Assembly: GCA_027021445.1 (NCBI GenBank)
Contig: JALUUH010000138.1
Coordinates: 8,275 to 72,274 of the forward strand
Direction of reading: 5' to 3'
Source of the DNA: Gammaproteobacteria bacterium
GTDB lineage: Bacteria > Pseudomonadota > Gammaproteobacteria > S012-40
Length of the DNA stretch: 64,000 nt
The notes under the pieces are model-generated. The model did not search any database and was not told the origin of the DNA. It worked only from the letters and a program-made list of their open reading frames with translations. Positions within the stretch are counted from its first letter, which is position 1. Each line of letters starts with the position of its first letter. A program made the translations under genes and the position numbers. This document shows, piece by piece, positions 17,335 to 42,220 of the stretch.

Positions 17335-17350
17335 TTTTAAGTACCGTGTT

Positions 17351-26908: not shown

Positions 26909-26912
26909 ATAC

Positions 26913-28241
26913 TTAACCTCGTGTCACTACGTGATTTAAACGTACAAAATTTTTCCAACCATCGTCGGATTCCGCCCTTACGATGAAACTATATACACCG
27001 GGTGCCAATCCCGCACTTAAGTGTAAAAACAAATCTTTGCGGCCAACGGTATCAAAGTTCATACTTTGCTCACTCAAGGTGTAATCACCTTCCCGCAGAC
27101 CTTCGATAGTAAGCGTCACTGTGCTTGGCTCAAAAAGCTTATTGGCAATATTAATACGATATTCCGTAATTTGCTTCCCTTGATGAACTTCAGATTGATA
27201 AACCGCCAAGTTATGCGCATCGTAGGTAAACAAACCATAAACAAAAATACCCATTCCAATAAACCACACGGGTAAAACCCACATAAGTCTTTGTTTTGCA
27301 CTCGGTAAAGGTCTCATCTGTCGATGACTCTCTGATAAAGTCTCTCTATCGCCCATTTTGAAACTCAATAAACCCTTTTTATTTTCCTTGGTGTGCATGG
27401 TATCGCAAGCAGTAACACAAGCACCGCAGTTAGTACAACTATCAAAAGTGGTTGTATTTCTCGGGTCGATTTGAACCATACACTTACTGACGCAATAAGA
27501 GCATTTCTCACATTCCGACGAGCGAGCCGAATCATAATGAATATGTAAGGTATCTTTGGTTTTGAATAGAAACTGCCAAATTCGATAGATGCACATATAA
27601 CGACAGAGAAAATGCCTTACAACGGCTAAATTCACAAAAACAATAAAGGCAAATACCATGTAAATCCAACGTAGGGAGAACGCCGTTTCAGATTGATCCT
27701 GGAAGGAGATTAAACCCCATAGTTGCCCAGGTTCGATGAAATATAACAGGGGAACTAAAGCAGCTACAAACGATAAGCCAAGAAGTTTAGTTCCTAATAG
27801 GAACCAATTAATCGCTTTGTTTTTATGCCCCGCCACCTTAGTTTTAGTCTGACTTTCCCAGTCAATGACCGCGCGTTTACCCAATAATTTAAAGGTGAAC
27901 TTATCCGCTAACGACGAAAAAGTATTTTGCGGACATAGCCACCCACAAAATGCGGTGCCAACGGTAGAATACAGCATAATAAATGTACATGCTAAGGCTA
28001 ACCATAAACCAAATACTAATGAAAAATCGGCAAACCAGACTTGACGCCCAAGCACAACAAACCCAGATGAAACATCAATTCTAAATATCCCCGTAAGCGG
28101 AATTAACAATAACAGGACAATCATCCCAAATTGAGAGCCCTGACGCACCCAATCTAGAGAGCTTCTATTGAGCCCGGCATCGGTGACTACTGCTATCTTA
28201 CTGAGTGCTTCGTTTGCTTTCATAGTGACCGATTCTAACAC
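26913..28241 (-). CDS. CcoG/FixG/RdxA-family polyferredoxin membrane protein, 442 aa
   Basis: Supporting motifs are 'CGWLCPQNTF' and 'CRYMCIYRIWQ'. Two 4Fe-4S motifs are present ('CEKCSYCVSKC', 'CTNCGACVTAC'). There is a C-terminal Ig-like region. Confidence 0.8.
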   Translation of the reverse strand: MLESVTMKANEALSKIAVVTDAGLNRSSLDWVRQGSQFGMIVLLLLIPLTGIFRIDVSSGFVVLGRQVWFADFSLVFGLWLALACTFIMLYSTVGTAFCGWLCPQNTFSSLADKFTFKLLGKRAVIDWESQTKTKVAGHKNKAINWFLLGTKLLGLSFVAALVPLLYFIEPGQLWGLISFQDQSETAFSLRWIYMVFAFIVFVNLAVVRHFLCRYMCIYRIWQFLFKTKDTLHIHYDSARSSECEKCSYCVSKCMVQIDPRNTTTFDSCTNCGACVTACDTMHTKENKKGLLSFKMGDRETLSESHRQMRPLPSAKQRLMWVLPVWFIGMGIFVYGLFTYDAHNLAVYQSEVHQGKQITEYRINIANKLFEPSTVTLTIEGLREGDYTLSEQSMNFDTVGRKDLFLHLSAGLAPGVYSFIVRAESDDGWKNFVRLNHVVTRG

Positions 28242-28280
28242 GCCAATAGGCTGAATTCACTGAAAAACGTTTAATTCGAA

Positions 28281-28337
28281 CTAGGAACTTATCCGCGAAC
28301 AGTATACGTAACGATCGCAGTTCTCGGACAAACCCTA
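28281..28337. repeat. Miniature (57 bp) member of the CTAGG-ended palindromic repeat family
   Basis: 'ctaggaacttatccgcgaac' and 'gttctcggacaaaccctag' form inverted ends related to the TIRs at 24538 and 25635. Confidence 0.5.
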
Positions 28338-28484
28338 GTATGCACTGAAAATCCAAGCAAAGATTAAATTAACTTTAACTTTTGGAAGAAACAAAGTACT
28401 TGTATTTAAATATTTAATTCGCTATATTCGGTAAACGCATATGAGTTTATGTCGTTAAACAAAAACAATCTGGGGGATTGAATA

Positions 28485-28604
28485 ATGGTTGATAACATAG
28501 GAATTAATATCCTTATTCCATTGGCAGTATTTGGCTTCATCATAGTTGGTTCATTGATGATGGCAGGCGCTGCACTTAAGGATACGCTTGAGCGTCGTAA
28601 ATAA
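28485..28604 (+). CDS. Small hydrophobic peptide, 39 aa (not in ORF track)
   Basis: The ATG is preceded by GGGGGA. The sequence is MVDNIGINILIPLAVFGFIIVGSLMMAGAALKDTLERRK. A strong terminator follows directly. Confidence 0.4.
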   Translation: MVDNIGINILIPLAVFGFIIVGSLMMAGAALKDTLERRK

Positions 28605-28622
28605 ACGCTACCAGGAATCAAT

Positions 28623-28650
28623 AAAAAAACCCGGCAAGCCGGGTTTTTTT
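28623..28650. terminator. Bidirectional rho-independent terminator
   Basis: The sequence is aaaaaaa-cccggcaagccggg-ttttttt. It can serve both the + strand peptide ORF and the minus-strand operon ending at 28675. Confidence 0.8.
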
Positions 28651-28674
28651 ATGCTCAGAATAAACGGCATTTGT

Positions 28675-31299
28675 TTATAATGGCGGATTAATTTCCTTAT
28701 ATAGACTCCTATAATATTTGACCTGCTCCAGATCTCCCTCCGCTTCAGCTATCTCCCATAAATCTTTAATCGCAAAATAGTGATCCGATCTAATTCTAAG
28801 GATTTCTTCTAAAGCTTGCTTTGCTGAGAAGCCATGCTCCTGCGCTTGATTCTTCGATGTGTACATTTGATCCGCTAAACCAAAACCTAACCAACGATCT
28901 TTATTGTTATACGCATAACCTTCTCTTAACTTTTGCAGCGCTTTATTTGGATCACCTTGCAGCGAAAACATCATGCTCTCAGCCCACAAATCAGTTCCTT
29001 TATACGCATTGCCAAACTGTACAAGCTCATCATTTGGAATTGAAAATATACCAGCAACCAGGTTTTCTGCTTGACGCATCGATAACACATATAAAAAAGT
29101 TTCTAATAAATTAAATCTGCCTTCATATTTTGCTTGCGGCAAAAGAAACTCTAATTTGGGAGACCACTCTGACTGTATCGCCGCAACTCTTACATCCTCT
29201 ATGTCGCCGATATAACGGCTCATCCAAGTCCAAACTCCCTCATTACCCGTTTTCTCCATAGTCGCCGGATCATCATACGAAACAAAATGTGACCGCATCG
29301 AAGCATAGAAGTCTGGTTTTTCAAGCGACCCCACTAGCGCCAGCCTAAAACCATCCAAAAATATCGCCGAATGCGGAAATGAGCCTTTAAAAGTACTTAA
29401 AACAATTTTCAGAGATTGAATATCATATTGATTTAAAGCGATCCACTGCACAAAAAGTCCGCGCTGATTCAAGATTCTAGCGACTCGCGCAAAGTGCTCA
29501 CTGGACAATAACGCTCCCCTACCCACGAGATCTGGATGAAATAAATCCCCTATCACTACATCGTAACTGCGCTTTGTTAACTTAATATACCGCCTAACAT
29601 CGTCTCTAACGATATCAATTTTATTACTAACATCCAGATTAACCTTGGCAAAATAACTACCGGCAGACTCGATCGCCCCTGCAGATAATTCTACAGCTGT
29701 AATACTTACCTCAGGGAATGCTAACGCTCCCGACGCAGTAATTCCCGTACCTAAACCCAAAAACAATACCTCTTTTGGGTCGTGATGTAACAGCAAAGAT
29801 AATCTCGCTTGATTTTTCTGAACAGTAACTGCAGTAGGCTCAGTTGAAGCATCCATCCGCTGAAGATCAGAAAGCAACAAACGTTCACCCGATGGCTTAT
29901 CAACAACACTCGTTAAAGAAACTGCATCTTCATAATAAAAAACATCTTTGGAATTTTTAAATGCCTCAGGAAGCAGACTTGAAACAGCAGGAAAGCCGAG
30001 AAACAATAAACCAATGAGCGAAATTGAAACTGCAGATAGCTGATAGGACCTCGAAGGAGCCCAAGCCAAACCGGTAAAAACCACGACCAATATAGAAATG
30101 TATATAATGGATACCGAACCAAACACCGGCAATAAAACAAAAGCAGCCAGCAATGCACCGATGGCGCCACCCAGTGAATTTGCGCCATATAAAAGCACCG
30201 CATCCTCAGCGCTACCTGAGAGACTTTGAAGCAAAACCGGAAACCACATTCCGAATAGAAACGTAACGGGAAAAAACACTACAAACAACACAAAAAATTG
30301 ATTAATAATGGCTTCATTAAAACTTTGAAAGTCGCTTAATTCAGCCCACGAAGATACAAATGGCAGCAATAAGATAGATAACAGACCAAAAACCGCAATT
30401 AACAACGGAATTACTGCTAGCAATACCTTTCGCTGAAAAAACCGATGGGCAAAAGCACCTATACCTATGCCTAATAGAAAAATAGCCAAAAGCATGGCTA
30501 AAACATATTCAGTTCTTAATAACACCATTCCATAAAGCCGAACCCATGCTATTTGCAACATCAAAGCTGCCATCCCTATCAACCCATAAGCAATTAATGA
30601 GGTCTTACTAACAGAGTTTGGTTTTTTGCAGACTACTTTTGATTTACCTAGCTGATCTAAAAAAAAGGACAACACAAAACATAATATTGCGATAAACAAA
30701 CCTAATATTGCCACCAGACGAGAAGAAACTATCCAGCCAAACACAGGCAATAGATAAATTGGCGTAATTGAACCAACGACCCCGCCTATTGTATTAATTC
30801 CATAAATTTGCCCAACTGTAATTTTGTATGGCTTTAACACATCAAGTAACAACGCAAAGGTTGCGCCCATCGCAACAGCAGGAATGAAAAGGAGAATAAA
30901 ACATGCGACTGATTCCAAGAAAAGAAAGGAACTCCAACTATTTTGTTCCGTATTCAAATAAATGAAACCTTCAATTTCCGGAACAAATTTTGGTAGCAAA
31001 AAAGCAAAGATAGCAATAAAGGCTTCCAATAATGCGAACAGCCTTAACGGAGAAATATTGAGCCGGACAAAATAAGCCCCAAGAAACCCGCCAGCGCCTA
31101 GTCCGGCCATAAATGCGGCAACTGTAATGGCTACACCAAAAATGTTTACCCCAAATATAAGCGATAGCATACGAACCCATAATATTTCGTAGGCTAGAGA
31201 AGTAAATCCAGTTAGAAAATATGCAGTTGCTATTAAGAGAGCAATGAAGGGAAGTGTCGACTTAGTTGAAACTTGATTGCCTATAGTCGTTTCAGTCAT
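28675..31299 (-). CDS. Fused polytopic membrane domain / spermidine-synthase-like class-I methyltransferase-fold / C-terminal TPR-like protein, 874 aa
   Basis: The N-terminal region of about 450 aa has many TM helices. The middle 'VLFLGLGTGITASGAL...AVELS...YDVVIGDLFHP' is a SAM/dcSAM-binding, spermidine-synthase-like fold. The C-terminus is helical-repeat. Confidence 0.7.
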   Translation of the reverse strand: MTETTIGNQVSTKSTLPFIALLIATAYFLTGFTSLAYEILWVRMLSLIFGVNIFGVAITVAAFMAGLGAGGFLGAYFVRLNISPLRLFALLEAFIAIFAFLLPKFVPEIEGFIYLNTEQNSWSSFLFLESVACFILLFIPAVAMGATFALLLDVLKPYKITVGQIYGINTIGGVVGSITPIYLLPVFGWIVSSRLVAILGLFIAILCFVLSFFLDQLGKSKVVCKKPNSVSKTSLIAYGLIGMAALMLQIAWVRLYGMVLLRTEYVLAMLLAIFLLGIGIGAFAHRFFQRKVLLAVIPLLIAVFGLLSILLLPFVSSWAELSDFQSFNEAIINQFFVLFVVFFPVTFLFGMWFPVLLQSLSGSAEDAVLLYGANSLGGAIGALLAAFVLLPVFGSVSIIYISILVVVFTGLAWAPSRSYQLSAVSISLIGLLFLGFPAVSSLLPEAFKNSKDVFYYEDAVSLTSVVDKPSGERLLLSDLQRMDASTEPTAVTVQKNQARLSLLLHHDPKEVLFLGLGTGITASGALAFPEVSITAVELSAGAIESAGSYFAKVNLDVSNKIDIVRDDVRRYIKLTKRSYDVVIGDLFHPDLVGRGALLSSEHFARVARILNQRGLFVQWIALNQYDIQSLKIVLSTFKGSFPHSAIFLDGFRLALVGSLEKPDFYASMRSHFVSYDDPATMEKTGNEGVWTWMSRYIGDIEDVRVAAIQSEWSPKLEFLLPQAKYEGRFNLLETFLYVLSMRQAENLVAGIFSIPNDELVQFGNAYKGTDLWAESMMFSLQGDPNKALQKLREGYAYNNKDRWLGFGLADQMYTSKNQAQEHGFSAKQALEEILRIRSDHYFAIKDLWEIAEAEGDLEQVKYYRSLYKEINPPL

Positions 31300-31308
31300 A
31301 TAATAAAA

Positions 31309-31656
31309 TTAATATGGATAAAACCAAACAACCGCAGTGACCGCATGCGCCACTGTTAGAAATACCGAAACACCGGCAAATATCATATGAGGAACAAATA
31401 CATTTTTTCCATAAATCCCGAGAGCCAGGCCAAATGCAGATGTTGCAAAAATGAATACCAACAAAATAATTCCCATGATAAACAATATTTCATGCCTACC
31501 TTGATTGAGCTCACTCTCCTCTTGCACATTAGTTTCTACACTTTTGAAAGGCGCCATCACAGCCGCACCACTCGATTCGGTTGAAAAACTACTCATTGGA
31601 AAAGCAAGCAAAAGCAGTAAGAGACCAATTAAATGGACCTTAGTCATTTTTAGCAT
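31309..31656 (-). CDS. Small membrane protein (signal peptide + 2 TM, His-containing), 115 aa
   Basis: It sits in an operon with only a 9-nt gap. It is hydrophobic and contains 'VPHMIFAG...LTVAHAVTAVVWF'. Confidence 0.4.
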   Translation of the reverse strand: MLKMTKVHLIGLLLLLLAFPMSSFSTESSGAAVMAPFKSVETNVQEESELNQGRHEILFIMGIILLVFIFATSAFGLALGIYGKNVFVPHMIFAGVSVFLTVAHAVTAVVWFYPY

Positions 31657-31668
31657 TTGTATAACCTG

Positions 31669-31899
31669 TTATTTAGTTTTTTTTGAGGTATTGTCTTTTT
31701 TAAACGCAAAGCGCCAATACAATATTGCCATTAATACCGGAGCCGCAAGCACCATTGGCAATAAAAAGATAAAAATTGCCCAAGGTGTTTCTATCGTGAC
31801 GTGCAGCCATCTATAACTATCTGTTGCATCAGCAAAAGCAGACGATGAAAATAAAAGACTACAAACTACAGAATAAATGATTAAAAAATTCTTGCTCAT
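31669..31899 (-). CDS. Small membrane protein, 76 aa
   Basis: It has a signal peptide ('SSSAFADA') and one TM. It is packed within the operon. Confidence 0.4.
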   Translation of the reverse strand: MSKNFLIIYSVVCSLLFSSSAFADATDSYRWLHVTIETPWAIFIFLLPMVLAAPVLMAILYWRFAFKKDNTSKKTK

Positions 31900-31914
31900 A
31901 ATTATACCAACTGG

Positions 31915-32979
31915 TTAGTGATCTACATCTTTAACGGTGCGAAACCCATAAAAATCAGATGCAAAATTAGGCCATGAAAAGTTGCGATGATAGGACGAAG
32001 TTGAAAAAGGATCTCCTTTCCACGACCCACCCCTCATTACTTTATATCTTTCTTCAGTTTCCATAAAGTCTAACATTTTTAAATTTCGTTCTTTTGAATC
32101 TTTAGGGATAATGGGAACTTTTGCCTTGAACAGAGACTCAGATGCCTCGCTACCCTTGTATGGATAAAAATCATCCTCGACCCATTCACTCACATTTCCT
32201 GCCATATCCATTACCCCGTATGGGCTAGCACCCTGAGGATAAGTCGTTACATCCGTAGTAGACCCAACATGATAGTAGGTATTTAGGCGCTTAGGATCCA
32301 TTTTATTCCCCCAAGGCCAGCGTCTAGCATCTTCACCCCTGGCTGCCTTTTCCCACTCAACCTCTGATGGAAGTCGCTTACCCGCCCATTCTGCATACGC
32401 TCTAGCATCAAACCATGAAACCAATACAACCGGGTGCATTTTCAAACCCAAAGGTATTTTTCCAGATTCCCAGTGTAATGGCGGCCGATAGTCAGTGGCT
32501 GCAATGAATCTCGCATATTGAGCATTGGTTACCGGATATTTATCAATTTCATAAGCTGCAACATTCACGATATGCGCTGGCTTGTTCTGCGAGTCAGCTT
32601 TTCTATCATCGGTACCCAAACTATACTCACCAGCGGGAATGAGTATTCTGGTATCAAGTTCATTCCAAACTTCTTCGGTCAATAATGCATTAGCCTCATC
32701 AACAGAATAAGTTACCTTAGGGATCGCTCTGTCCTCTTGAGCTTGGTTTCGATATAAGTCTTCTCCCGCCGCTCTAAGATGATCATTTAATTCAGAGAGG
32801 TCATACGCTGCAAGATCGCGCATTTGGGTCATTCGGTTTAAACCCAACTCCAGAACATGGATGGTGCCCATAACGAGCGCAATTACGATACAAGACACAA
32901 AAGTAGCGCCTAGAATTTTTTTCCTGAATAATATCTGATCAGATGAAACTTTAGTTCTTTTCAAAGCTGGGACTTGCAT
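31915..32979 (-). CDS. Membrane-anchored formylglycine-generating-enzyme-fold protein (SUMF1/EgtB/PvdO/NirV family), 354 aa
   Basis: It has an N-terminal TM. Supporting motifs are 'YEIDKYPVTNAQYARFI', 'HPVVLVSWFDARAYAEWAGKRLPSEVEWEKAARG', 'GNVSEWVED' and 'VMRGGSW'. Confidence 0.8.
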   Translation of the reverse strand: MQVPALKRTKVSSDQILFRKKILGATFVSCIVIALVMGTIHVLELGLNRMTQMRDLAAYDLSELNDHLRAAGEDLYRNQAQEDRAIPKVTYSVDEANALLTEEVWNELDTRILIPAGEYSLGTDDRKADSQNKPAHIVNVAAYEIDKYPVTNAQYARFIAATDYRPPLHWESGKIPLGLKMHPVVLVSWFDARAYAEWAGKRLPSEVEWEKAARGEDARRWPWGNKMDPKRLNTYYHVGSTTDVTTYPQGASPYGVMDMAGNVSEWVEDDFYPYKGSEASESLFKAKVPIIPKDSKERNLKMLDFMETEERYKVMRGGSWKGDPFSTSSYHRNFSWPNFASDFYGFRTVKDVDH

Positions 32980-32988
32980 TACAGAACC

Positions 32989-33516
32989 TCATAAACTTTC
33001 TTTGTTAATATCAGCTGCGGATTCAGGTTTCTTGCTTTCCACTTTATTTTGATAACGAATGTGTCTATCAGACTTTGAACTTCGGCCATACGTTTTTTTG
33101 ATAACATACTCGCCGACTATTCCACCACCTGCGCAAGCTTCCACACAAACAATAACAATCAAAATCCAGTAGCCAATTGGCAGCACTGAAACACCTTCAG
33201 CTAAAAACCGAGTGTCATACGAAATAATATACTCGGGTATCAAAATCAATAGGGGGGGAAAATTGGCCAGCATTTTTCCGCCTAAGCCATAAATAGCAGA
33301 TACAAGCATCCCAGCGATAAACGGAACGACTATGATTGTTACAATCCACATTGGCCGGAAAGTATGTAAAAGCCCGTAATATAGCTCCAAATTTACGCCA
33401 GTTAGCATCTTGCCAAAATAGAAAACAACTGCGCCTGCAAAGACAGCAAATAACGCCCATCCTACATCGAGTATTTTTATTTTACGGGATAGGTTCTGAA
33501 TCATCGGTATAATCAT
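32989..33516 (-). CDS. Polytopic membrane protein of unknown function, ~171-175 aa
   Basis: It has 4 predicted TM helices and overlaps the upstream gene. The start is uncertain (33516 or 33504). Confidence 0.45.
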   Translation of the reverse strand: MIIPMIQNLSRKIKILDVGWALFAVFAGAVVFYFGKMLTGVNLELYYGLLHTFRPMWIVTIIVVPFIAGMLVSAIYGLGGKMLANFPPLLILIPEYIISYDTRFLAEGVSVLPIGYWILIVIVCVEACAGGGIVGEYVIKKTYGRSSKSDRHIRYQNKVESKKPESAADINKESL

Positions 33517-33988
33517 TTCCAGTTAATTTTTCATAACGTTTTTTTGTGGCATCTTGTAAATACCAATCCTTAACCTTTAACGTTGCAAGGTATTTAGCTA
33601 AAGTTTGACGCTCATCCACACTCAAGTGCGCATAGGAAGGCATACGATATTTTGGCTTCAACCTCGAGGGCAAAATATCTTGCGGAACCTCCGATGACAA
33701 ATAATTAAACAGCCAAGCTTCATCTCTAAACTCTCCAACACCATCAATAGCAGGCGCGGGTACAGCTTGATTCAGATCCCTGGTTCCCCATATAAAATGG
33801 CATTCTCTGCAATGAAGAGTTCGGAGAATATTTCCTGCTTTATTAGCTAGTTCTGGGCTAGCATTTGAAACAAATGGTATATCCATTTCTTCTTCAGCTA
33901 CATCTTCTTTATTACCAAACTTCAAGCCTGCAATTATTGCAACACTTAAAATCATCGCTACAGCGATACCTTTTTCACCGGTTCTCAT
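33482..33988 (-). CDS. Membrane-anchored monohaem cytochrome c with CcoO-like haem domain, 168 aa
   Basis: It has a TM anchor and a single CRECH. 'PAPAIDGVGEFRDEAWLFNYLSS...YRMPSY' parallels the CcoO pattern 'GPDL..VG.R....W...HL..P....MP.Y'. Confidence 0.65.
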   Translation of the reverse strand: MRTGEKGIAVAMILSVAIIAGLKFGNKEDVAEEEMDIPFVSNASPELANKAGNILRTLHCRECHFIWGTRDLNQAVPAPAIDGVGEFRDEAWLFNYLSSEVPQDILPSRLKPKYRMPSYAHLSVDERQTLAKYLATLKVKDWYLQDATKKRYEKLTGNDYTDDSEPIP

Positions 33989-34263
33989 TTTTTACGTGCT
34001 TTCGCCTCAAGCTTCTCTCTTAGAACATCCTTGCGTTTTTGCTCTTGTTCTTTTTGTATTTTAAGCATGTATTCGTATTCTTCAGGTTCCATTTTATCTT
34101 TGTCTTTTTCATCAAAGACAACATATTTTATATCTTCATCAAACTGTTCGTTTTTAGCCGCCCAGCGCAAAGCGATACCTGCACCAACTAATATTAGCGC
34201 AGCAACCACCAACCATAAATATATAGTCCATCCATCGGGTAGATTTTGAAAAAAATCAGCCAT
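33985..34263 (-). CDS. Single-TM protein with highly charged C-terminal tail, 92 aa
   Basis: The TM is 'IYLWLVVAALILVGAGIAL' and a K/E-rich tail follows. It has a 4-nt ATGA overlap with the next gene. Confidence 0.45.
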   Translation of the reverse strand: MADFFQNLPDGWTIYLWLVVAALILVGAGIALRWAAKNEQFDEDIKYVVFDEKDKDKMEPEEYEYMLKIQKEQEQKRKDVLREKLEAKARKK

Positions 34264-34274
34264 ACATAATTCCT

Positions 34275-34616
34275 CTAAATCAAGTAACCTTCAATTAACT
34301 GTACATAACCCATAATTACCGCTAAAAATAGTCCAATAATTATCGCGCCAAACATAACTTTTTCACCCGTTTTTAGTTTCTTGTCATCACCCTTTGGCAT
34401 ATATAGATAAATTATAAATCCAAATACAAGTAACGAAAGAACTAAAAAGAAAAAAATATAATTACTGAATACCTGTGAACGCAGACCTTCAATACTCATA
34501 TCTACGCCAAACACAATATTATTATCAGAAACACTCTCAACGACAAATGTCGGCAGCCAATCAAAAACTAATATCTGGCTCATGATGGAGAAAACTAAAC
34601 TACTAAAAACTTCCAT
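34275..34616 (-). CDS. Membrane protein of unknown function, 113 aa
   Basis: It is the first ORF after the terminator at 34709-34745 and has 3 hydrophobic segments. Confidence 0.4.
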   Translation of the reverse strand: MEVFSSLVFSIMSQILVFDWLPTFVVESVSDNNIVFGVDMSIEGLRSQVFSNYIFFFLVLSLLVFGFIIYLYMPKGDDKKLKTGEKVMFGAIIIGLFLAVIMGYVQLIEGYLI

Positions 34617-34708: not shown

Positions 34709-34745
34709 AAAAGAAAAGCCGCTCCATTAAGGAGCGGCTTTATTT
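34709..34745 (-). terminator. Rho-independent terminator ending the ccoN-like operon
   Basis: An 8-bp stem (gccgctcc / ggagcggc, 34718-25 / 34731-38) has a 5-nt loop and T-rich flanks on both strands. Confidence 0.7.
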
Positions 34746-34776: not shown

Positions 34777-34926
34777 TTAATTAAATACATCGTCGTCATT
34801 GCCCGCTTCTTCTGAATGGCGCTTCCAATGAGCATCTACTAGGAATATCCCATACAAAGTAGGACAAAGAATAGCGAACGCTATCATGCCAGCAAATACA
34901 CCTGGCGCATAATCATAATCAATCAT
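34777..34926 (-). CDS. Small TM peptide, 49 aa (not in ORF track)
   Basis: The upstream context is TAAGGAGTCATACAAATG, so an AGGAG SD sits right after the upstream stop. The sequence is MIDYDYAPGVFAGMIAFAILCPTLYGIFLVDAHWKRHSEEAGNDDDVFN. Confidence 0.5.
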   Translation of the reverse strand: MIDYDYAPGVFAGMIAFAILCPTLYGIFLVDAHWKRHSEEAGNDDDVFN

Positions 34927-34938
34927 TTGTATGACTCC

Positions 34939-35619
34939 TTATATTCTACCAATGTCAGGCTTTCTCGTAAAATGAGGTAGCTGCTTAATAACAATAATCA
35001 TTGTTATTATGAAATAAGTCACATAAAAAACATCAATCGTGTAACCCTTATCCCACCATGGCTGCAAACGTTCACGAACCAGTTTTCCACCTATTTCAAC
35101 ATAGTTGCCTTCGAAATTAGCAAGAACGATTCTATCACCGATTACGTTATACCAACTTAAAGGGTATAAGCCACCATTTTGAATTTCACGAATACCAGGC
35201 GCGATATTTAGAAGATCATCCCAAGTAATTGGATGTCTCTCCAAAGCACCCTGCAGACGACTATCAGCGCCACTATAAACCAAATTATAGAGATACTCGA
35301 TTTTCTTCTCCGGATCAGCGATTTGCTGTACTTCAGGCGAATTCATATTCGCAACAAATTCCTTGAAGTTGTCAGCAGTAGGCCGCTGCCCCCAGATAGG
35401 CATGGTTATCATGAACGCCGTAAGTATTATCAACGCCATGATTAAAACTAAAGGCATCGGAAGACGATTATTGCCTTCACTTAACCCACCATGTTTTTCT
35501 TTTTCCCAATGCTCTATCATTTCTTTCTGTTCTTTATCATCAGAAAGGCAGTATAGAGGCTGATCAAATTTCCAACCCATAATTAAATCCCCCGTTATCT
35601 CAAGCTCGTCATAATCCAA
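34939..35619 (-). CDS. Haem-less CcoP-position protein: FixP_N-like TM entry + soluble domain + C-terminal TM, 213-226 aa
   Basis: 'EGNNRLPMPLVLIMALIIL' resembles the CcoP N-terminus, and 'PIWGQRP' is present. No CxxCH is present. The likely start is ATG 35580 (GGGGGA SD) rather than 35619. Confidence 0.5.
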   Translation of the reverse strand: MDYDELEITGDLIMGWKFDQPLYCLSDDKEQKEMIEHWEKEKHGGLSEGNNRLPMPLVLIMALIILTAFMITMPIWGQRPTADNFKEFVANMNSPEVQQIADPEKKIEYLYNLVYSGADSRLQGALERHPITWDDLLNIAPGIREIQNGGLYPLSWYNVIGDRIVLANFEGNYVEIGGKLVRERLQPWWDKGYTIDVFYVTYFIITMIIVIKQLPHFTRKPDIGRI

Positions 35620-36575
35620 TCTACCAATGCACGAACCTGTGAATCAGCTGCAGGCTCAGGCACATCAGGCGGATAAATTGAATCACCTTTAAGGTACGTC
35701 ATATACTCAGCTCGCCACTTAGGAAAGTCAATTGATGCACCGCTAGCATCGCGAGCATCCGAAGGACCTTTACCAATTGGCGCCCAAAGATAATCAAACC
35801 TAGGCATGATTGAGTTAGGCTGAACTAAACGCGGATTAAAAAAGTGCATATACATCCATTCACGCGATGAATTACGTGAAGCTACGTGCAAAATATCCGG
35901 TGCTTTACGATCTGAACCGAAAGCGGTAGGCATTTCACCATTGAAGTCACCAAGATATGGCGGAGTACCAAAATACTGCCAATCTTGGGTTTCTTCTGGT
36001 AGCAATGTATGACACCACCAGCAACCCTCTGTGATATAGATGGTTTTACCTGCTCCAACAAATCGCTTAGCATCATCACCAACCGAACTTAGAACCTTAT
36101 CTACCGTCCATCCACGTACTGCCGTTGCATTCTCCACATAATCCAACTCTTCACCGTTGAACTCACCTTTAACAATGGTGAACACTATACCGTCACCCGG
36201 TTTAGCATCGTTAATTTTGCCAACATTGACACTTAACTCTTCAACCCCTAAACCAAGCTGATCAGTATGATTAATACCAGGCGAAAATGGAGTACCAGGC
36301 TTGTATACATAAGCTCTTATTGGCGGATCAATTGCAGCGCCCGTTGAAGGATCTTTGTCTAAAATTACAGTTACTGGCTTACCATCACCTCGCACCAAAG
36401 GATCTTCATAACTAAATCCTATAAGACGACCAGCAGAAAGCTGTTTATCCAAGCCAACCCAAGTAGAAACACCTGAACGGAAGTCAAAACTTGGGAAGAA
36501 CAGTGTAATACTCATTGAAAAGCCCATCATCAAACCGATGCCGGCTGAACCAAATTTATGTTGTCTAAAACCCAC
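35595..36575 (-). CDS. CcoO-like monohaem subunit with ~150-aa insertion between TM anchor and haem domain, 326 aa
   Basis: 'GKTIYITEGCWWCHT' and 'FGSDRKAPDILHVASRNSSREWMYMHFFNPRLVQPNSIMPRFDYLW' match the canonical CcoO/FixO pattern. The extra segment spans roughly residues 40-190. Confidence 0.8.
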   Translation of the reverse strand: MGFRQHKFGSAGIGLMMGFSMSITLFFPSFDFRSGVSTWVGLDKQLSAGRLIGFSYEDPLVRGDGKPVTVILDKDPSTGAAIDPPIRAYVYKPGTPFSPGINHTDQLGLGVEELSVNVGKINDAKPGDGIVFTIVKGEFNGEELDYVENATAVRGWTVDKVLSSVGDDAKRFVGAGKTIYITEGCWWCHTLLPEETQDWQYFGTPPYLGDFNGEMPTAFGSDRKAPDILHVASRNSSREWMYMHFFNPRLVQPNSIMPRFDYLWAPIGKGPSDARDASGASIDFPKWRAEYMTYLKGDSIYPPDVPEPAADSQVRALVDWIMTSLR

Positions 36576-36666
36576 TTGTCACTCCTCCCTAGAAGCAATC
36601 GTTAATCCTGAGGGAAAAAATCGGAACTCCCTCAGGATCTCAAATGCTGCTATTTCAAATTTACGA

Positions 36667-38076
36667 TTACCGCTCGTAAGCCATTTCATGCGCATAACGA
36701 CCATCAGGTATGATAGTACCTTCACGGGCTGTCATCCACATGTTGTATAACCAAATTGTGTTACCGGTAAATACCATAGTTCCACCAATCCAACGTGCAA
36801 TCATATATGGATGCTCAGCAATAACCACATCAATATATGGAACTTCGTAGATTTTACCAGCGCCTTGAATGAGTCCGGCGATAGTCATGGATATCCAGTA
36901 AATACAGAAACCTACAATTACAAACCAATAATGCAGATTTGCCAAGGCTAATGAATAGAGTTTACGGCGTAACATTGCTTGTAAACCGAAGTAAACTGCA
37001 GCAATCTCTAGGAATGTAGACATTCCTAACAACGCTAAATGCGCATGCGCAACAATCCAACCAGTACCATGTACGTACCAGTTAATAGCGCGAGTTTGCT
37101 GGAAGCCACCTTGCATATTCAATGGAATCGCAAGCAAAACACCTGTTACGGAGAATTTGATTTCTACATTCTCTACAAACAAGCTCCACTTACCTTTCAT
37201 TGTTAACAATATGTTAGCAATAAAAGCCACTGCCGGGATAAGAATCAAAACACCTTCTACTGAAGCAAAAGACTTCAACCATTCAGGCAGCGGAGCCGAC
37301 ATCAAATGATGAGAAGCGGGTGTTGAGTAGAAAGCGATGATTGACCAAAAATGCAAATGACCAATTCTATGCGAATAAAGGGGATTCCCCGTTATTTTTG
37401 GAATTGTATAATAAGCAATAGCCGCTGCAACCGGCGTGATCCATAGACCAAGCAAGTTATGTGCGTGCCAGAAAGTCAAATAAGCTTCTGTTAAACCAGT
37501 CAGGTTAAAGAGCTCGGGTGATTGACCAATAGTTACTGTGATTATGGTCAAAAATATCATCGAGCCAAAAAACCAGTTCGTGATGTATATGCCCTGGGTT
37601 TTACGATGAGCAATTGTCATCCAAACATTAATACCCAATGGAAGTAAAACACCAAAAATAACGACTAAATCGATAGGCCAAATCAAGTCACTGTATTCAC
37701 GACCTGAAGTAATCCCCATCCATAACAATAGAAGCCCTAGACTTAAACCAATGTTCCATAGAAACACATTCCATAAGCCTAATTTTTCTGACCATAACTT
37801 GGTATTACCCAGTGATGGCGTCATGTACATCATCGTCATGGCAAAAGCCATAGAAATCCAACCAAGAATTACCGCAAGCACATGCACTTGACGCATATGG
37901 CCAAACGCAAATAACTCCGTACCAGTAACCCAGTCAGGAAACGCAAGTTTTGCAGCGTTAAACGAGCCTAAACCCGTTCCTACTACAAACCAGAAAATAG
38001 ATGAATAACCAAAGAATATGGTTGCCGACCCAACCGGTATGTCCTCATTCTTTGCAAATAATAATTTTAGCAGCAT
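36667..38076 (-). CDS. C-family (cbb3-type) haem-copper oxidase catalytic subunit, CcoN-like, 469 aa
   Basis: It has 12 TM helices. By my count, H65 ('MRQVH'), H206 ('WHAHN'), Y250 with H256/H257 ('AFYSTPASHH') and H344/H346 ('VAHAH') are present. Their spacing equals that of the CcoN ligand set including the cross-link Tyr. Confidence 0.85.
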   Translation of the reverse strand: MLLKLLFAKNEDIPVGSATIFFGYSSIFWFVVGTGLGSFNAAKLAFPDWVTGTELFAFGHMRQVHVLAVILGWISMAFAMTMMYMTPSLGNTKLWSEKLGLWNVFLWNIGLSLGLLLLWMGITSGREYSDLIWPIDLVVIFGVLLPLGINVWMTIAHRKTQGIYITNWFFGSMIFLTIITVTIGQSPELFNLTGLTEAYLTFWHAHNLLGLWITPVAAAIAYYTIPKITGNPLYSHRIGHLHFWSIIAFYSTPASHHLMSAPLPEWLKSFASVEGVLILIPAVAFIANILLTMKGKWSLFVENVEIKFSVTGVLLAIPLNMQGGFQQTRAINWYVHGTGWIVAHAHLALLGMSTFLEIAAVYFGLQAMLRRKLYSLALANLHYWFVIVGFCIYWISMTIAGLIQGAGKIYEVPYIDVVIAEHPYMIARWIGGTMVFTGNTIWLYNMWMTAREGTIIPDGRYAHEMAYER

Positions 38077-38122
38077 TTAAACAGTCCTCCCAATTAATAA
38101 ACCCTGATAATCAAATACAAGA

Positions 38123-38212
38123 TCACTCTTGCATTTTATTAAAAAGGTACCAGGACAACCACATACTTGAAAAAGCAAGCAGAATCCCACAAGCGCCCGC
38201 AAATGTAGCCAT
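38123..38212 (-). CDS. Tiny TM peptide, 29 aa (not in ORF track)
   Basis: The SD TAGGAGG lies 7 nt before the ATG. The sequence is MATFAGACGILLAFSSMWLSWYLFNKMQE. It lies immediately upstream of the ccoN-like start. Confidence 0.4.
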   Translation of the reverse strand: MATFAGACGILLAFSSMWLSWYLFNKMQE

Positions 38213-38231
38213 GCCAAACCTCCTAATTTAA

Positions 38232-38522
38232 TTACCAACCAGTGTTATCGCGTTGAGACTCGATTTCACCATGTTTTTTCATTGCTAGACCAAAGATGAT
38301 CGCGAAAGCAAGCCCAAAAGCAAGCATCATGACATCTACGAAACCCGAGAAAGTTGATGGATTATAAGCTTCTCCATACCAACCGCCCCAGCTTTCATAC
38401 GGCCCTCTACCAACCGCACACATAACCGCGGCACCAAACACACTTCCATTCCCCATACCGGTAGTAAAAGCACCGATAACAAGAGCCCAGAAAGTCTTTC
38501 CTATTGTTAACTTATTTTGCAT
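38232..38522 (-). CDS. Small 3-TM membrane protein, 96 aa
   Basis: I moved the start to ATG 38522 (GGAGG upstream). The protein is Gly-rich and hydrophobic. It is the first gene of the ccoN-like operon. Confidence 0.5.
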   Translation of the reverse strand: MQNKLTIGKTFWALVIGAFTTGMGNGSVFGAAVMCAVGRGPYESWGGWYGEAYNPSTFSGFVDVMMLAFGLAFAIIFGLAMKKHGEIESQRDNTGW

Positions 38523-38797
38523 CTCCACCCTCCGAAGCAAATGATAAGACCCTATTAAAACGCAAATTCCCAAAGCAAATTATGATAATTAGTTTATGAA
38601 AACTTACACATCCCCCAAGCAAATGAGGAAACCTTGGCAGATTGACACAGCTAATGATTAACGTCAAGATAATTGTATGAAAAAACAATGGGCGACAAAA
38701 TGTTGGCAATCCCATAACAAAAAATAATACAATCATCACATTGAGAACACATAGAAACAACTATCTGTTTAATCAAAAATTAGAAAAGGCAGGAAAA

Positions 38798-39001
38798 ATG
38801 CAGAAAAGAGAAATGGCTATTTATATCTTTGTCGCCCTCAGCTCACTATTGGTAGTCTCTTACACAGTACACATGCTTATTGGAGGATTAGTTAGCGAAG
38901 AACTCGAAACACAGATAACAATTGGCGTGACCTTATTTTGGGCCTGCCTCATTATTGCAGCTGGCTTTGACATCGCCAAACGAAGAGGACTCAGAAATTG
39001 A
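38798..39001 (+). CDS. Small 2-TM protein, 67 aa (only plus-strand gene inside the island besides 28485)
   Basis: ATG 38798 follows AGGCAGGAAAA. It has two hydrophobic helices. Confidence 0.35.
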   Translation: MQKREMAIYIFVALSSLLVVSYTVHMLIGGLVSEELETQITIGVTLFWACLIIAAGFDIAKRRGLRN

Positions 39002-39105: not shown

Positions 39106-39561
39106 TTACCTAAACACACGAAGCAAAGCCTTCGCTTCACTAAAGCTGCTTTCACTTGAAAATTGACCCTTATGAAAAACTTGCTGCTGTTTTTTTCCTT
39201 CCCCATCCAAACCGGACAAGCCTATACTTTTACCCGCAGTATCCGAAAAAAACCTCACATCCTTCACCATATCGATTGCTTCGCCGTTGCGCAACTCCAA
39301 ACGCACCGACTTATGTGACACATCCAAAGCTATAGCCGATGACGGCAATATCATTAACCGAGTTTTGGCAATGCGATTAAATGCGATCAAGAAAATCATA
39401 GTCGTCATAAACACTAATAGATAAGTAATGTTTTGCTCTCCATTAAACCAAAATTGCGCGGCAATTGAGACCAACGCTACCAGTGTTGGAATATATAGCA
39501 GCAAATCCCACTTCACGCCCTTTTTATCTTGCACAAACTCAAATCTAGAACTTTTTGACAT
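39106..39561 (-). CDS. Membrane protein (2 TM + soluble C-terminal domain), 151 aa
   Basis: It is an ORF packed 4 nt after the upstream gene. I recognised no motif. Confidence 0.45.
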   Translation of the reverse strand: MSKSSRFEFVQDKKGVKWDLLLYIPTLVALVSIAAQFWFNGEQNITYLLVFMTTMIFLIAFNRIAKTRLMILPSSAIALDVSHKSVRLELRNGEAIDMVKDVRFFSDTAGKSIGLSGLDGEGKKQQQVFHKGQFSSESSFSEAKALLRVFR

Positions 39562-39565
39562 ATAC

Positions 39566-40072
39566 CTAACCTTTCTGCTCTGCCAGTATCCGGCCTAATA
39601 CACCATCCAACTCACCATAAAGTAGGCGACCAGGCCGACGAAACACAACTGTACCAGAAGTATCAATAATAAATGTCCACGGATCACCCTTAACCCGATA
39701 GGAAATAAACGCCTCTGGATTCATATATTGATCCATATGCAGAAAAATAACATCTTTTCCATACTTATCAATAATGGCTTTTAACATTTGGAGCTGCTTA
39801 TCACACACCGTACAATGACCAGGCGTAGCAAACTCAATAACAACCGCCTTGTTCAACGCAAGAGCATCATCAACTGAATACTGATACATTCGCGCATCAG
39901 GATGACGATAACTCGTCAACCTACTTAAGTCCCCGCCCACATCATCAATGAATTTGGTTCGCAGACTCGGCGCCTCCATTCCCAAACCCAATTTGCCCGC
40001 AGGATCTTCCATTCCACAGCCAACCAGAAGACTAAACACACCTAATAACAAAGAAAACTTAACGAGCCTCAT
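39566..40072 (-). CDS. TlpA-like thioredoxin-fold lipoprotein (redoxin family), 168 aa
   Basis: I moved the start to ATG 40072. A lipobox is present ('SLLVGCG'). 'VVIEFATPGHCTVCDKQL' has the CxxC in the thioredoxin position. Confidence 0.65.
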   Translation of the reverse strand: MRLVKFSLLLGVFSLLVGCGMEDPAGKLGLGMEAPSLRTKFIDDVGGDLSRLTSYRHPDARMYQYSVDDALALNKAVVIEFATPGHCTVCDKQLQMLKAIIDKYGKDVIFLHMDQYMNPEAFISYRVKGDPWTFIIDTSGTVVFRRPGRLLYGELDGVLGRILAEQKG

Positions 40073-40589
40073 AAGCTTTTTCCCAATTAGAGCAGGTCTT
40101 ATATAAATTATACGCCCAGACAAAATTTGCTAATAAAACCAAGGTACCAAATATGCCCATGATAGCCAATAAAGGCTTCACTATAACCTCTACTTCCTGA
40201 GGCGTAGACATCACACTGGCCATACCACCCATTGTTCCAGCCATAACAAAAAACACCACCATACCGATGACACCCACGTTATGAACCCAAAAATGCACCT
40301 TAACTAAAGCCAAGCTGTAAATTGGCCTCTTGACCAGTCGCGGAACAATATAATAGATAGCTGCAAATATTGCCATTTCGACCCACCCAAGTAAATTTAT
40401 ATGAGTGTGGCCACGCACTATTAAATCACCATGAAGACGATGATCGACGAAATAGCGAAACTCAGCTATTCCTCCCATTAAAGCACCCCATGAAAAACCG
40501 ATAATACTGTATATGATACATGCATATACAAACCACAAAGTATACTTTCGATACTCAATATCATTCTCATGAATCCACGGCAAAGACAT
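40059..40589 (-). CDS. Stand-alone membrane protein homologous to CcoN helices ~IX-XII, 176 aa
   Basis: 'RGHTHINLLGWVEMAIFAAIYYIVPRLVKRPIYSLALVKVHFW' aligns with 'VAHAHLALLGMSTFLEIAAVYFGLQAMLRRKLYSLALANLHYW' of ORF 36667-38076. ATG 40589 is the likely start. Confidence 0.6.
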   Translation of the reverse strand: MSLPWIHENDIEYRKYTLWFVYACIIYSIIGFSWGALMGGIAEFRYFVDHRLHGDLIVRGHTHINLLGWVEMAIFAAIYYIVPRLVKRPIYSLALVKVHFWVHNVGVIGMVVFFVMAGTMGGMASVMSTPQEVEVIVKPLLAIMGIFGTLVLLANFVWAYNLYKTCSNWEKAYEAR

Positions 40590-40612
40590 TTGCAACAACC
40601 CTTCTATTTTAA

Positions 40613-41209
40613 TTATTTATCTTCCAACAAAACATCTGCCTCTGTAGGCGTCTTTTCTCTAATATCTGTATATTTATCACCCCATTCTTTAGGAGCCCAC
40701 ATTTCCACCATATTATCAATAAAAGCCGACTTTTCGGGCGGCGGCACTTTAGCAACAGAAGAACCAGGATCCGCCTTGAGCTCAGATAAAAATACCACAA
40801 TAGCATGCCGATCTTCAGCACTCATTTCACTGGCATAAGCTGCTTCTTTTGGGCGCAAACCATGGTCTAAAGTAATCCCGCCCTCATACACCGATTCCGG
40901 ATGCAAAAGAAATTGAGCCAGCCATTCTTTTGAACGTTTGGAACCAATCCCATCCAGAGACAGGCCCATACTGGTGCCAGTTCTTAATGCTCGATGACAG
41001 GAATTGCAACGTGCTTCACGGTATATTTTAGAACCCTGACTCCCTAATGGCGAAAAATCAAAATGCGTTGTCTGAGCAAACAAAGGCTCTTCAGAATTCA
41101 GTCTCACCGTTTCCAATCCAACGTATGCAATTAACGCCAACAAGAAAAAAACCCCAAATACTATAAATAAAATTTTCTCACCCGACTTTAAAGATTGTTT
41201 TTTTTTCAT
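40613..41209 (-). CDS. Membrane-anchored monohaem cytochrome c with CcoO-like haem domain, 198 aa
   Basis: It has a TM anchor and a single CNSCH. 'GLSLDGIGSKRSKEWLAQFLLHP' parallels CcoO. The start at ATG 41209 is preferred over the TTG at 41248. Confidence 0.65.
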   Translation of the reverse strand: MKKKQSLKSGEKILFIVFGVFFLLALIAYVGLETVRLNSEEPLFAQTTHFDFSPLGSQGSKIYREARCNSCHRALRTGTSMGLSLDGIGSKRSKEWLAQFLLHPESVYEGGITLDHGLRPKEAAYASEMSAEDRHAIVVFLSELKADPGSSVAKVPPPEKSAFIDNMVEMWAPKEWGDKYTDIREKTPTEADVLLEDK

Positions 41210-41410
41210 TATGTAACCGCACCAAATTAATTTAAAAAGCAATGGCAAAGAACTGCGAGCATATAGACTTGCTAATAAATGACTAGTTCACCCTTGCAAA
41301 ATATAAATATTGAAAGCAAAACATGTACGCTCGCCAAATCTAACAAAAAACCTCTAGAGAAAAAATCAATTTCGCAAATTATATTTCAATAAAACCCTAC
41401 TTTATTAAAA

Positions 41411-41450
41411 ACAAAAAAAAAGCGGGCTAAATGCCCGCTTTTCTTTTTTG
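41411..41450 (-). terminator. Rho-independent (bidirectional-looking) terminator after the cytochrome c4 gene
   Basis: The sequence is A8-agcgggc-taaat-gcccgct-T-rich. Confidence 0.8.
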
Positions 41451-41458: not shown

Positions 41459-42220
41459 CTAGTAGCCTCTTTCATAGGGCTGCATGATATTGCCCAATGA
41501 ATACGCAGATGCATTCGTTAAGTACGCCGCCGCATTATTAATATCTTCATCAGTCATGTTTTTAGCAACTTTTTGCATTTGACTTTGCGGATCATTTGTT
41601 CTTGACCCATCACGCCATTTTTTCAATTGATTGACTAAATATACATACTTTTGAAGTCCAATTTGCGGATAAATTGGTGGCGCACCACGCCCATTATAGC
41701 CATGACAAGCTCTACAAGAAGGCACGGGCTTAGCTCGATTGCCCTGACCATACTCAACTAAAGTCTTACCTTTGTGAGTCAAACCAACTTCAACACCCTG
41801 CTCTTTCAGGGCATTTAAATCAGATCCTTTGTACTCATCAGCCTTACCCGTTGTTAGGGTTGACAAATAGAAAGAAACGTCATTTCGATCCTGCGCCGAT
41901 AACCCCTTCGCATTATCATTCATAACAAACATAGTAGTGTCCAAACGCTTGTCAGTTGCATAATCTTCTAACTGCTTACGCAGAAAAACCCAAAACTGAC
42001 CCGCGATACGAGGCGTTCCTAATGCGTCATCACCTGTGCCATCTTGACCATGACACGATGAACACGCAGGAACTGAACCCTTACCGTTCTCATATATACT
42101 CTTACCATTCGCAACATCACCACTACCCTTTGGGTATTGCGGCGAAGACATTACTAATGAAGGTACTACTGCCCCTACTACGAAAGCGGCGACAGAAATA
42201 GCGGTGACTAACCGTTTCAT
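41459..42220 (-). CDS. Dihaem cytochrome c4-type protein, 253 aa
   Basis: It has a signal peptide and two CxxCH motifs (CSSCH, CRACH). Each is followed by a 'G...P.I.GQ' and Met-loop pattern ('LKKWRDGSRTND...MQKVA'). Confidence 0.8.
   Translation of the reverse strand: MKRLVTAISVAAFVVGAVVPSLVMSSPQYPKGSGDVANGKSIYENGKGSVPACSSCHGQDGTGDDALGTPRIAGQFWVFLRKQLEDYATDKRLDTTMFVMNDNAKGLSAQDRNDVSFYLSTLTTGKADEYKGSDLNALKEQGVEVGLTHKGKTLVEYGQGNRAKPVPSCRACHGYNGRGAPPIYPQIGLQKYVYLVNQLKKWRDGSRTNDPQSQMQKVAKNMTDEDINNAAAYLTNASAYSLGNIMQPYERGY

Follow-up and report, generated by a model that had tools for sequence, protein, structure and literature searches.

Two forms of cbb3-type cytochrome oxidase, differing in subunit composition, have been described in the iron-oxidizing Zetaproteobacteria and Gallionellaceae (PMC7029218, PMC8788666, PMC10734462), and this literature equates them with the two subtrees that Ducluzeau 2008 labelled 'proximal' and 'distal'. 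CcoN and CcoO are the only subunits common to all cbb3 clusters, CcoP not being universal (Ducluzeau 2008, as cited in PMC5520029). In Ferrovum JA12, only subunits I and II were found, and co-localised cytochromes c were proposed as a replacement for subunit III (PMC4725956). A cluster of the cathode-oxidizing Candidatus Tenderia electrophaga that includes the units 'Complex IV (1)' and 'Complex IV (2)' is syntenic with a region of Mariprofundus ferrooxydans (PMC5371394). Here, we describe a cluster of this kind in an uncultured gammaproteobacterium, on a 64,000-nucleotide stretch of contig JALUUH010000138.1 that is referred to as the window. The window has a low G+C content of about 40%, and the genes of interest lie in a run of minus-strand genes with the core oxidase operon at 34777-38522.

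The gene order and gene sizes in Table S1 of the Ca. Tenderia paper (PMC5371394) match those of the window cluster (Table 1). The core operon of the window corresponds to 'Complex IV (2)' (Tel_00435-00450) and the module upstream of it to 'Complex IV (1)' (Tel_00410-00425), while the dihaem cytochrome c4 gene occupies the same position as Tel_00405, which the Tenderia authors call an orthologue of M. ferrooxydans Cyc1 (PMC5371394). Cyc1 is the electron donor proposed in the iron-oxidizer literature. The window, Ca. Tenderia and M. ferrooxydans share a protein of 93-96 aa, a CcoN of 468-469 aa, a CcoO of 316-326 aa and a hypothetical protein of 207-217 aa. On the Tenderia cathode, complex IV-2 is among the highest-expressed genes and the canonical ccoNOPQ genes are expressed at a low level (PMC5371394). 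The same paper credits Barco et al. 2015 with having noted synteny among neutrophilic iron oxidizers earlier, and both CcoN and CcoO were detected in the proteome of M. ferrooxydans PV-1 (as reported in PMC5520029).

Because the Tenderia paper lists the cluster (PMC5371394), the cluster and its non-canonical nature are already published together with expression data. The window is a further uncultured member of a known, biochemically uncharacterized clade of non-canonical cbb3 oxidases, a type that is found in neutrophilic and acidophilic iron oxidizers, in Ca. Nitrotoga and in the cathode-oxidizing Ca. Tenderia. An earlier note, made from the DNA alone, had presented the operon as atypical, a description that it said would lose force if the architecture were that of a well-known, characterized cbb3 subtype; the architecture is indeed the norm for a large and already described clade. 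The literature searched holds neither a biochemical characterization of an enzyme of this clade nor an analysis of its accessory genes, and the haem-less CcoP-like gene appears there only as a hypothetical protein. Neither the label 'proximal' nor 'distal' is given to the clade here, as the citing papers do not tie the labels to subunit sets.

Core operon and subunit I

The region very probably encodes the catalytic core of a non-canonical cbb3-type cytochrome c:O2 oxidoreductase operating by the mechanism proposed below, with a predicted C-family active site in CcoN and a monohaem CcoO that works without the haems of CcoP. A conserved cluster of about 19 genes spans some 16 kb of the window (26.5-42.2 kb), and the core operon is its middle transcription unit. 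The operon contains, in order, genes for a 96-aa protein, a 29-aa peptide, CcoN, CcoO, a 213-aa protein and a 49-aa peptide, and its accessory genes are conserved and predicted to be co-transcribed. A strong terminator follows the 49-aa gene, within the interval 34709-34745 where the earlier note had placed one.

The note had also stated that the operon is not ccoNOQP, and this holds: CcoN and a CcoO partner are present, and a dihaem CcoP and CcoQ are both absent. In the window, a canonical FixP query finds nothing but the haem domain encoded by the separate c4 gene (E 7.7e-4), none of the small open reading frames (ORFs) has a FixQ Pfam match, and a tblastn search with three CcoQ sequences returned nothing. 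A canonical ccoNOQP operon was sought in the 64-kb window only, and none lies there. The canonical enzymes (CcoNOQP of Pseudomonas stutzeri, 3MK7/5DJQ, and rhizobial FixNOQP) share with the window the metal ligands, the helix-VII tyrosine and a monohaem CcoO anchored by a transmembrane (TM) helix, and CcoS-like and CcoG-like genes are found near the window operon. They differ from it in their accessories, which in the window are an insertion in CcoO, a haem-less two-TM protein and three small membrane proteins.

Table 1. Features of the oxidase cluster in order of transcription, with their counterparts in Table S1 of the Ca. Tenderia electrophaga paper (PMC5371394)
Feature	Position	Strand	Remarks	Ca. 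Tenderia
Dihaem cytochrome c4, 253 aa	41459-42220	-	Two Cytochrom_C stretches; own transcription unit	Tel_00405, hypothetical, labelled Cyc1, 247 aa
Terminator of the dihaem c4 unit	41413-41447	-		
Upstream conserved module	39106-41248	-	Pfam; same order in 57-79 of 83 loci	
TM-anchored monohaem cytochrome c, 211 aa	40613-41248	-	N-terminus weakly FixO-like	Tel_00410, hypothetical, 'Complex IV (1)'
179-aa protein, only the C-terminal third of subunit I	40059-40598	-	PF00115 positions 301-435	Tel_00415, short 'CcoN', 174 aa
Thioredoxin-like lipoprotein	39566-40123	-	Upstream module	Tel_00420, thioredoxin
151-aa protein	39106-39561	-	Upstream module	Tel_00425, hypothetical
96-aa membrane protein	38232-38522	-	Motif TTGMGNGSVFGAAxMCAxGRGP; GGAGG ribosome-binding site (RBS) before ATG; first core-operon gene	Tel_00435, hypothetical, 93 aa
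29-aa single-helix peptide	38123-38212	-	LAFSSMW[FL]SWYL; AGGAGG RBS	
CcoN-type subunit I, 469 aa, divergent C-family	36667-38076	-	PF00115 E 4.6e-72	Tel_00440, cytochrome c oxidase, 'Complex IV (2)', 468 aa
Long CcoO, 326 aa	35595-36575	-	FixO; N-terminal helix, about 120-aa inserted domain, monohaem c domain	Tel_00445, cytochrome oxidase, 316 aa
213-aa haem-less two-TM protein	34939-35580	-	14 nt after ccoO; AGGAG 9 nt upstream of ATG	Tel_00450, hypothetical, 207 aa
49-aa single-helix peptide	34777-34926	-	MIDxDxxPxVF...PALYG..VD..W; AGGAG RBS; last core-operon gene	
Intrinsic terminator	34715-34741	-	11-bp stem, 7 G-C pairs, then TCTTTT (T-run); closes core operon	
Downstream conserved module	26492-34616	-	Pfam; synteny in M. 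ferrooxydans and 40-80 of 83 loci	
113-aa TM protein		-	First of downstream module	
CcoS/FixS-like protein	33985-34263	-	Downstream module	
TM-anchored monohaem cytochrome c	33482-33988	-	Downstream module	
175-aa TM protein		-	Downstream module, after monohaem cytochrome c	
FGE-sulfatase-family protein, 354 aa	31915-32979	-	Conserved in 77 of 83 loci	
Spermidine-synthase/methyltransferase-like membrane protein, 874 aa	28675-31299	-	Conserved in 70 of 83 loci	
CcoG-like polyferredoxin, 442 aa	26913-28241	-	tblastn with canonical CcoG, E 5e-14	
138-aa two-TM protein	26492-26908	-	Shares motif of 213-aa protein; adjoins CcoG-like gene	

A phmmer search of subunit I against the PDB revealed that its best matches are all CcoN chains of cbb3 oxidases, led by 3mk7_A of P. 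stutzeri (E 7.6e-60) and followed by four further chains at E 3.5e-58 to 3.5e-43. The sole match to a nitric oxide reductase (NOR), 4xyd_A, is marginal (E 0.0066). The residues H65, H206, Y250, H256, H257, H344 and H346, which the earlier note had counted, are found at these positions of the 469-aa product, and a check of their register in the phmmer alignment places all seven on ligand or cross-link residues of P. stutzeri CcoN. H65 and H346 (haem b) correspond to H60 and H347, H344 (haem b3) to H345, H206, H256 and H257 (CuB) to H207, H257 and H258, and Y250, the putative cross-link tyrosine of helix VII, to Y251. These seven residues are invariant across the 11 CcoN sequences of a 12-sequence alignment. 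E127 aligns with P. stutzeri E122, a ligand of the Ca site, and is likewise invariant in an alignment that includes five canonical CcoNs.

The cross-link tyrosine resides on helix VII in the C family and on helix VI in the A and B families. Subunit I is assigned to the C family because of its ligands, the position of the tyrosine and its similarity to CcoN, and the note's view of a genuine O2-reducing enzyme of this family is upheld as a prediction. The cytochrome c-dependent NORs (NorBC) belong to the same superfamily and likewise have a monohaem c partner subunit; they differ in that NorB of Agrobacterium has a serine at the tyrosine position and an isoleucine in place of the first CuB histidine.

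With canonical CcoN/FixN of Alphaproteobacteria, subunit I shares 27-29% identity, and with Agrobacterium NorB 18.5%; its identity to members of its own clade in Gamma-, Beta- and Zetaproteobacteria is 74-79%. In a rough neighbour-joining tree rooted with NorB, which is indicative only, the clade forms a long separate branch inside the CcoN group, beside a homologue from the megaplasmid of Ralstonia solanacearum. The Ralstonia cluster (3707-7982 of the compared stretch), likewise non-canonical, encodes a 550-aa CcoN-like 'hypothetical protein' and a 207-aa 'cytochrome-c oxidase', together with a 203-aa cytochrome c and a SCO protein. Between the window and M. ferrooxydans, the identity amounts to 74% for CcoN, 52% for CcoO and 37% for the 213-aa protein. 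The contrast between these last two values and the 74-79% of CcoN across classes suggests either a very strong constraint on subunit I or lateral spread of the cluster among lithotrophs.

The CcoO homologue scores 58.4 bits against FixO (Pfam cut-off 29.6). Its gene begins 92 nt downstream of ccoN, and the protein has a single CWWCH at residue 185 and an invariant M257. The earlier note had described an insertion of about 150 aa between the TM anchor and the haem domain. The insertion is present, but its size is about 120 aa, because residues 175-264 align with residues 55-143 of CcoO in the solved cbb3 structures. It is conserved in 25 homologues and is modelled by AlphaFold with a block-mean predicted local distance difference test (pLDDT) score of 80-96 over about residues 61-170; the haem domain is poorly modelled. 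A fold search of the PDB with this model gave no match below E 0.27 for the insertion.

Accessory proteins and their distribution

Relatives of the 213-aa protein family occur in 254 of 185,579 species-representative genomes. The best 80 of the 254 were taken for comparison, and all counts out of 83 refer to the related loci compared. The 80 genomes are mostly from uncultured Gammaproteobacteria (Ectothiorhodospiraceae, Chromatiales, Thiohalomonadales, Thiotrichaceae), with some metagenome-assembled genomes (MAGs) of Nitrosomonadales and Burkholderiales. The cluster is syntenic in these 80 species-representative genomes and in M. ferrooxydans, whose gene order around ccoN is that of the window over about 20 genes. 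The order that recurs, across Gamma-, Beta- and Zetaproteobacteria, is c4, monohaem cytochrome c, subunit-I fragment, thioredoxin-like protein, 151 aa, 96 aa, 29 aa, CcoN, CcoO, 213 aa, 49 aa, 113 aa, CcoS-like protein, monohaem cytochrome c, 175 aa, FGE-family protein, spermidine-synthase-like protein, CcoG-like protein and 138 aa. Among the loci compared, the nearest is that of an 'uncultured Ectothiorhodospiraceae' MAG, with a CcoN 98% identical to that of the window. Metagenomes and named organisms alike contain many homologues of subunit I with 73-91% identity. Among the members of the 90%-identity clusters to which these belong are M. ferrooxydans PV-1 (EAU53374), Mariprofundus erugo, Ferrovum myxofaciens and Ca. 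Nitrotoga arctica, as well as a Thiotrichaceae MAG and a hydrothermal-vent metagenome; the CcoNs of F. myxofaciens and Ca. Nitrotoga fall in clusters with hits 77-80% identical to the window CcoN, and Ferrovum and Ca. Nitrotoga both belong to its clade.

The gene in the CcoP position most likely starts at the ATG at 35580, because AGGAG lies at a suitable place upstream and the homologues all begin M[GA]WKFDQP. The product is thus more likely of 213 aa, as in the public gene call, than of 226 aa as the earlier note had it. The note's observation that the gene has no CxxCH is confirmed, and the protein contains a single cysteine. Two hydrophobic helices, at about residues 44-62 and 180-198, the second preceded by QPWWDKGY, flank a periplasmic domain of about 110 aa that AlphaFold models with a pLDDT of 80-93 (73.5 for the whole model). 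No Pfam domain is recorded for the family, whose members all carry the annotation 'hypothetical'. A fold search of the PDB with the model gave nothing below E 4, and the family profile has no match among the PDB sequences at E <= 10.

FixP_N is the only Pfam family matched by more than one of 25 members of the 213-aa family (3/25), the best value being that of the M. ferrooxydans orthologue (E 0.0017). A search of 1.84 billion representatives with the family profile (A2) matched 33 clusters and recovered short relatives that carry the N-terminal motif as well as the second helix with PWWDxGY. None of the 33 clusters is of CcoP length with haem domains, and direct homology to a full CcoP was therefore not reached. 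A remote family member, P0378, matches the A2 profile at E 7.5e-13 and FixP_N with 33.7 bits (cut-off 24.9). Homology between the first helix of the 213-aa protein and the FixP_N helix is thus probable, but only by way of such intermediates. Searches by sequence and by fold find no relative of the remainder of the protein, which is therefore new.

The 96-aa protein has homologues in 70 of the 83 loci, always immediately upstream of ccoN, and is 46% identical to the product of an 86-aa gene in M. ferrooxydans; it has no significant match in Pfam or the PDB. Of the three-TM protein in the earlier note, the conserved gene stands, but a hydropathy scan gives one clear TM segment and a Gly-rich hydrophobic N-terminal stretch. 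The 29-aa peptide is likewise conserved in 70 of 83 loci (52-93% identity), with 61% identity to a called 35-aa gene of M. ferrooxydans. The 49-aa peptide was detected in 41 loci, and a 44-aa gene takes its place in M. ferrooxydans. Both short ORFs, which the note had singled out for their strong Shine-Dalgarno sites, do have RBSs of the GGAG type, and their protein sequences are conserved. All three small ORFs are real genes, with distinct amino-acid motifs that recur in dozens of species. The Tenderia table lists no gene in either of the gaps that match the positions of the 29-aa and 49-aa peptides. A comparison of the 96-, 29- and 49-aa proteins with CcoQ, CcoM and every chain of the solved cbb3 complexes revealed no similarity.

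Conserved flanking modules

The conserved synteny, which the earlier note had not remarked on, continues on either side of the terminator. Upstream of the core operon, the note's dihaem c4 at 41459-42220 is confirmed as a dihaem cytochrome by its two Cytochrom_C stretches, and a c4 homologue lies directly upstream in 49 of the 83 loci. The 179-aa protein keeps the H-x-H pair (RGHTHINLLGW), which in CcoN provides ligands to haem b3 and haem b. Between this module and the core operon, the window has only a doubtful plus-strand ORF (38741-39001); the same gap in M. ferrooxydans contains a multicopper oxidase (353 aa) and two c-type cytochromes (5219-7394 of the compared stretch).

The FGE-family and 874-aa genes of the downstream module are also present in the M. 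ferrooxydans cluster. At the far end of the module, the motif ENNVIIPYWF...FPFWGNRPG of the 138-aa protein resembles EGNNRLPMP...MPIWGQRP of the 213-aa protein, of which it is likely a paralogue judging by this likeness. The CcoG-like gene and the 138-aa gene are conserved as a pair in 40-55 of 83 loci, and may be equivalent to the 'polyferredoxin and three hypothetical proteins' of Ca. Tenderia (Tel_00495-00510), which respond to electrode potential.

Elsewhere in the window, adjacent genes for the copper chaperones SCO1/SenC and PCuAC are located at 16272-17418 (minus strand) and could deliver copper to the oxidase. A trihaem c7-type cytochrome of 232 aa with three CxxCH motifs is encoded at 4431-5129 (minus strand). 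In Ca. Tenderia, three paralogous trihaem cytochromes are reportedly expressed at very high levels and are candidate periplasmic carriers.

Proposed mechanism and alternatives

As no dihaem CcoP is present, electrons cannot enter via CcoP haems, which supports the earlier note's contention that the entry route differs from that of classical cbb3 oxidases. Electrons would enter directly at the haem of CcoO, donated by the periplasmic, Cyc1-like dihaem c4 encoded upstream and/or by the two membrane-anchored monohaem cytochromes, and would then pass through haem b to haem b3-CuB, the presumed site of O2 reduction. The note had named c4 as a candidate donor; it does sit at the position of Cyc1, the proposed donor of iron oxidizers, and the donation itself is a deduction. 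The donor cytochrome may dock on the conserved insertion of CcoO. The 213-aa protein may be a haem-less descendant or analogue of CcoP that replaces it structurally, with a new periplasmic domain and with its FixP_N-type helix packed against CcoN. Together with the 96-, 29- and 49-aa proteins, it would form a set of structural subunits analogous to CcoQ and CcoM. The CcoS-like, CcoG-like and thioredoxin-like genes would act in cofactor and copper maturation. Fe(II), nitrite or poised electrodes sustain the known hosts, and we speculate that the loss of the CcoP haems suits high-potential donors.

Several observations weigh against this assignment. Subunit I scores 221 bits against the ccoN equivalog of NCBIfam (TIGR00780), below the cut-off of 583, and is consequently a member of a divergent clade and not an orthologue of canonical CcoN. 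The 213-aa protein of the window itself has no Pfam match to FixP_N (PF14715). An hhalign comparison with five canonical CcoPs places its residues 33-64 (LSEGNNRLP and the helix) on CcoP 22-55 (IKELDTPVP and the helix) in the expected register, but is not significant (E 0.054, 1% probability). The FixP_N-like entry helix ('EGNNRLPMP') of the earlier note thus stands through the intermediate P0378, and falls short of significance for the window protein. A terminator separates the core operon from the proposed maturation genes. In addition, the literature searched contains no purified enzyme of the clade, and O2 reduction, proton pumping and subunit composition are deduced from sequence.

The last point of this kind concerns the proton path. 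Throughout the clade, P. stutzeri S240 is replaced by glycine (G239) and Y317 by alanine (A316); all canonical CcoNs compared have serine and tyrosine at these positions. Both residues, with T215, Y223 and N289, presumably belong to the single, K-analogue proton-input channel of the C family (compare Hemp 2007, Buschmann 2010, Ahn 2014). The equivalents of the latter three are kept as T214, Y222 and N288. The position of E323 is a glutamine throughout the clade and in the Ralstonia homologue, whereas five CcoNs of the ccoNOQP type keep the glutamate. Since S240 and Y317 are replaced, proton uptake may differ or be impaired; the altered channel residues, read from an alignment, are a lead and not a result. 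A run of histidines (H236, H240, H242) is located beside G239.

The alternative that fares best, though we consider it unlikely, is that the anchored monohaem cytochromes (33482-33988 and/or 40613-41248) replace CcoP and relay electrons to CcoO, the soluble c4 not being the direct donor. Each has a TM segment at its N-terminus, 79 and 76 of the 83 loci conserve them, and the Ferrovum paper proposes co-localised c-type cytochromes as substitutes for subunit III (PMC4725956). However, both are encoded in transcription units apart from ccoNO, and the 211-aa cytochrome is paired instead with the subunit-I fragment.

A lower probability is given to a second alternative, in which the 213-aa and small proteins are transient assembly or maturation factors, like CcoH and CcoS, leaving a bare CcoNO dimer as the mature enzyme. 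In keeping with it, the cluster has many genes of the maturation type (CcoS-like, CcoG-like, thioredoxin-like), the FixP_N similarity of the 213-aa protein is weak, and the M. ferrooxydans proteome report names only CcoN and CcoO (PMC5520029). The genes nevertheless form part of the ccoNO operon, at distances of 14 nt or similar and with strong RBSs of their own. Small hydrophobic proteins are, moreover, routinely missed by shotgun proteomics. Finally, the 207-aa orthologue in Ca. Tenderia is expressed at nearly the level of CcoO (PMC5371394).

That the enzyme is mainly a NOR or another non-oxygen haem-copper reductase is very improbable and was rejected: C-family oxidases and cNORs are related, subunit I is divergent (27-29% to canonical CcoN and below the ccoN equivalog cut-off), and two presumed proton-channel residues are lost in an enzyme whose NOR relatives are not known to have a cytoplasmic proton channel, but the three CuB histidines and the cross-link tyrosine are invariant where Agrobacterium NorB has a serine at the latter, NorB is matched only marginally (E 0.0066, 18.5% identity, against E 7.6e-60 for CcoN), and the hosts include obligate microaerophilic iron oxidizers that have this enzyme as their cbb3 oxidase.

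Beyond the assignment as a non-canonical cbb3 oxidase, the features may be combined, tentatively and with somewhat less than even probability, into a distinct C-family subtype for high-potential donors (Fe(II) via Cyc2/Cyc1, nitrite, poised cathodes). Its CcoN-CcoO core may have shed the CcoP haems, with a membrane helix as the remnant of CcoP and three micro-subunits; the inserted domain of CcoO may dock the dihaem c4, and the proton-input channel may be remodelled (S240 to G, Y317 to A). A companion 'mini' module, formed by the C-terminal fragment of subunit I and the FixO-like cytochrome, may have a redox role of its own.

The window itself is one more uncultured gammaproteobacterial example and brings no new principle. 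The residual novelty is a parts list, comprising the haem-less CcoP-like subunit and three conserved small membrane proteins, two of which are unannotated in the Tenderia table, together with the conserved CcoO insertion, the two altered channel residues and the companion subunit-I-fragment module. This list can inform work by purification, mass spectrometry and cryo-EM. Neutrophilic iron oxidation and the uptake of electrons from cathodes presumably end in this oxidase, whose genes rank among the most highly expressed of the organisms concerned. Since Fe(II) supports growth only by a narrow energetic margin, proton pumping and its stoichiometry bear directly on the bioenergetics of the hosts; a remodelled channel, if true, would imply another proton-uptake route or pumping stoichiometry.

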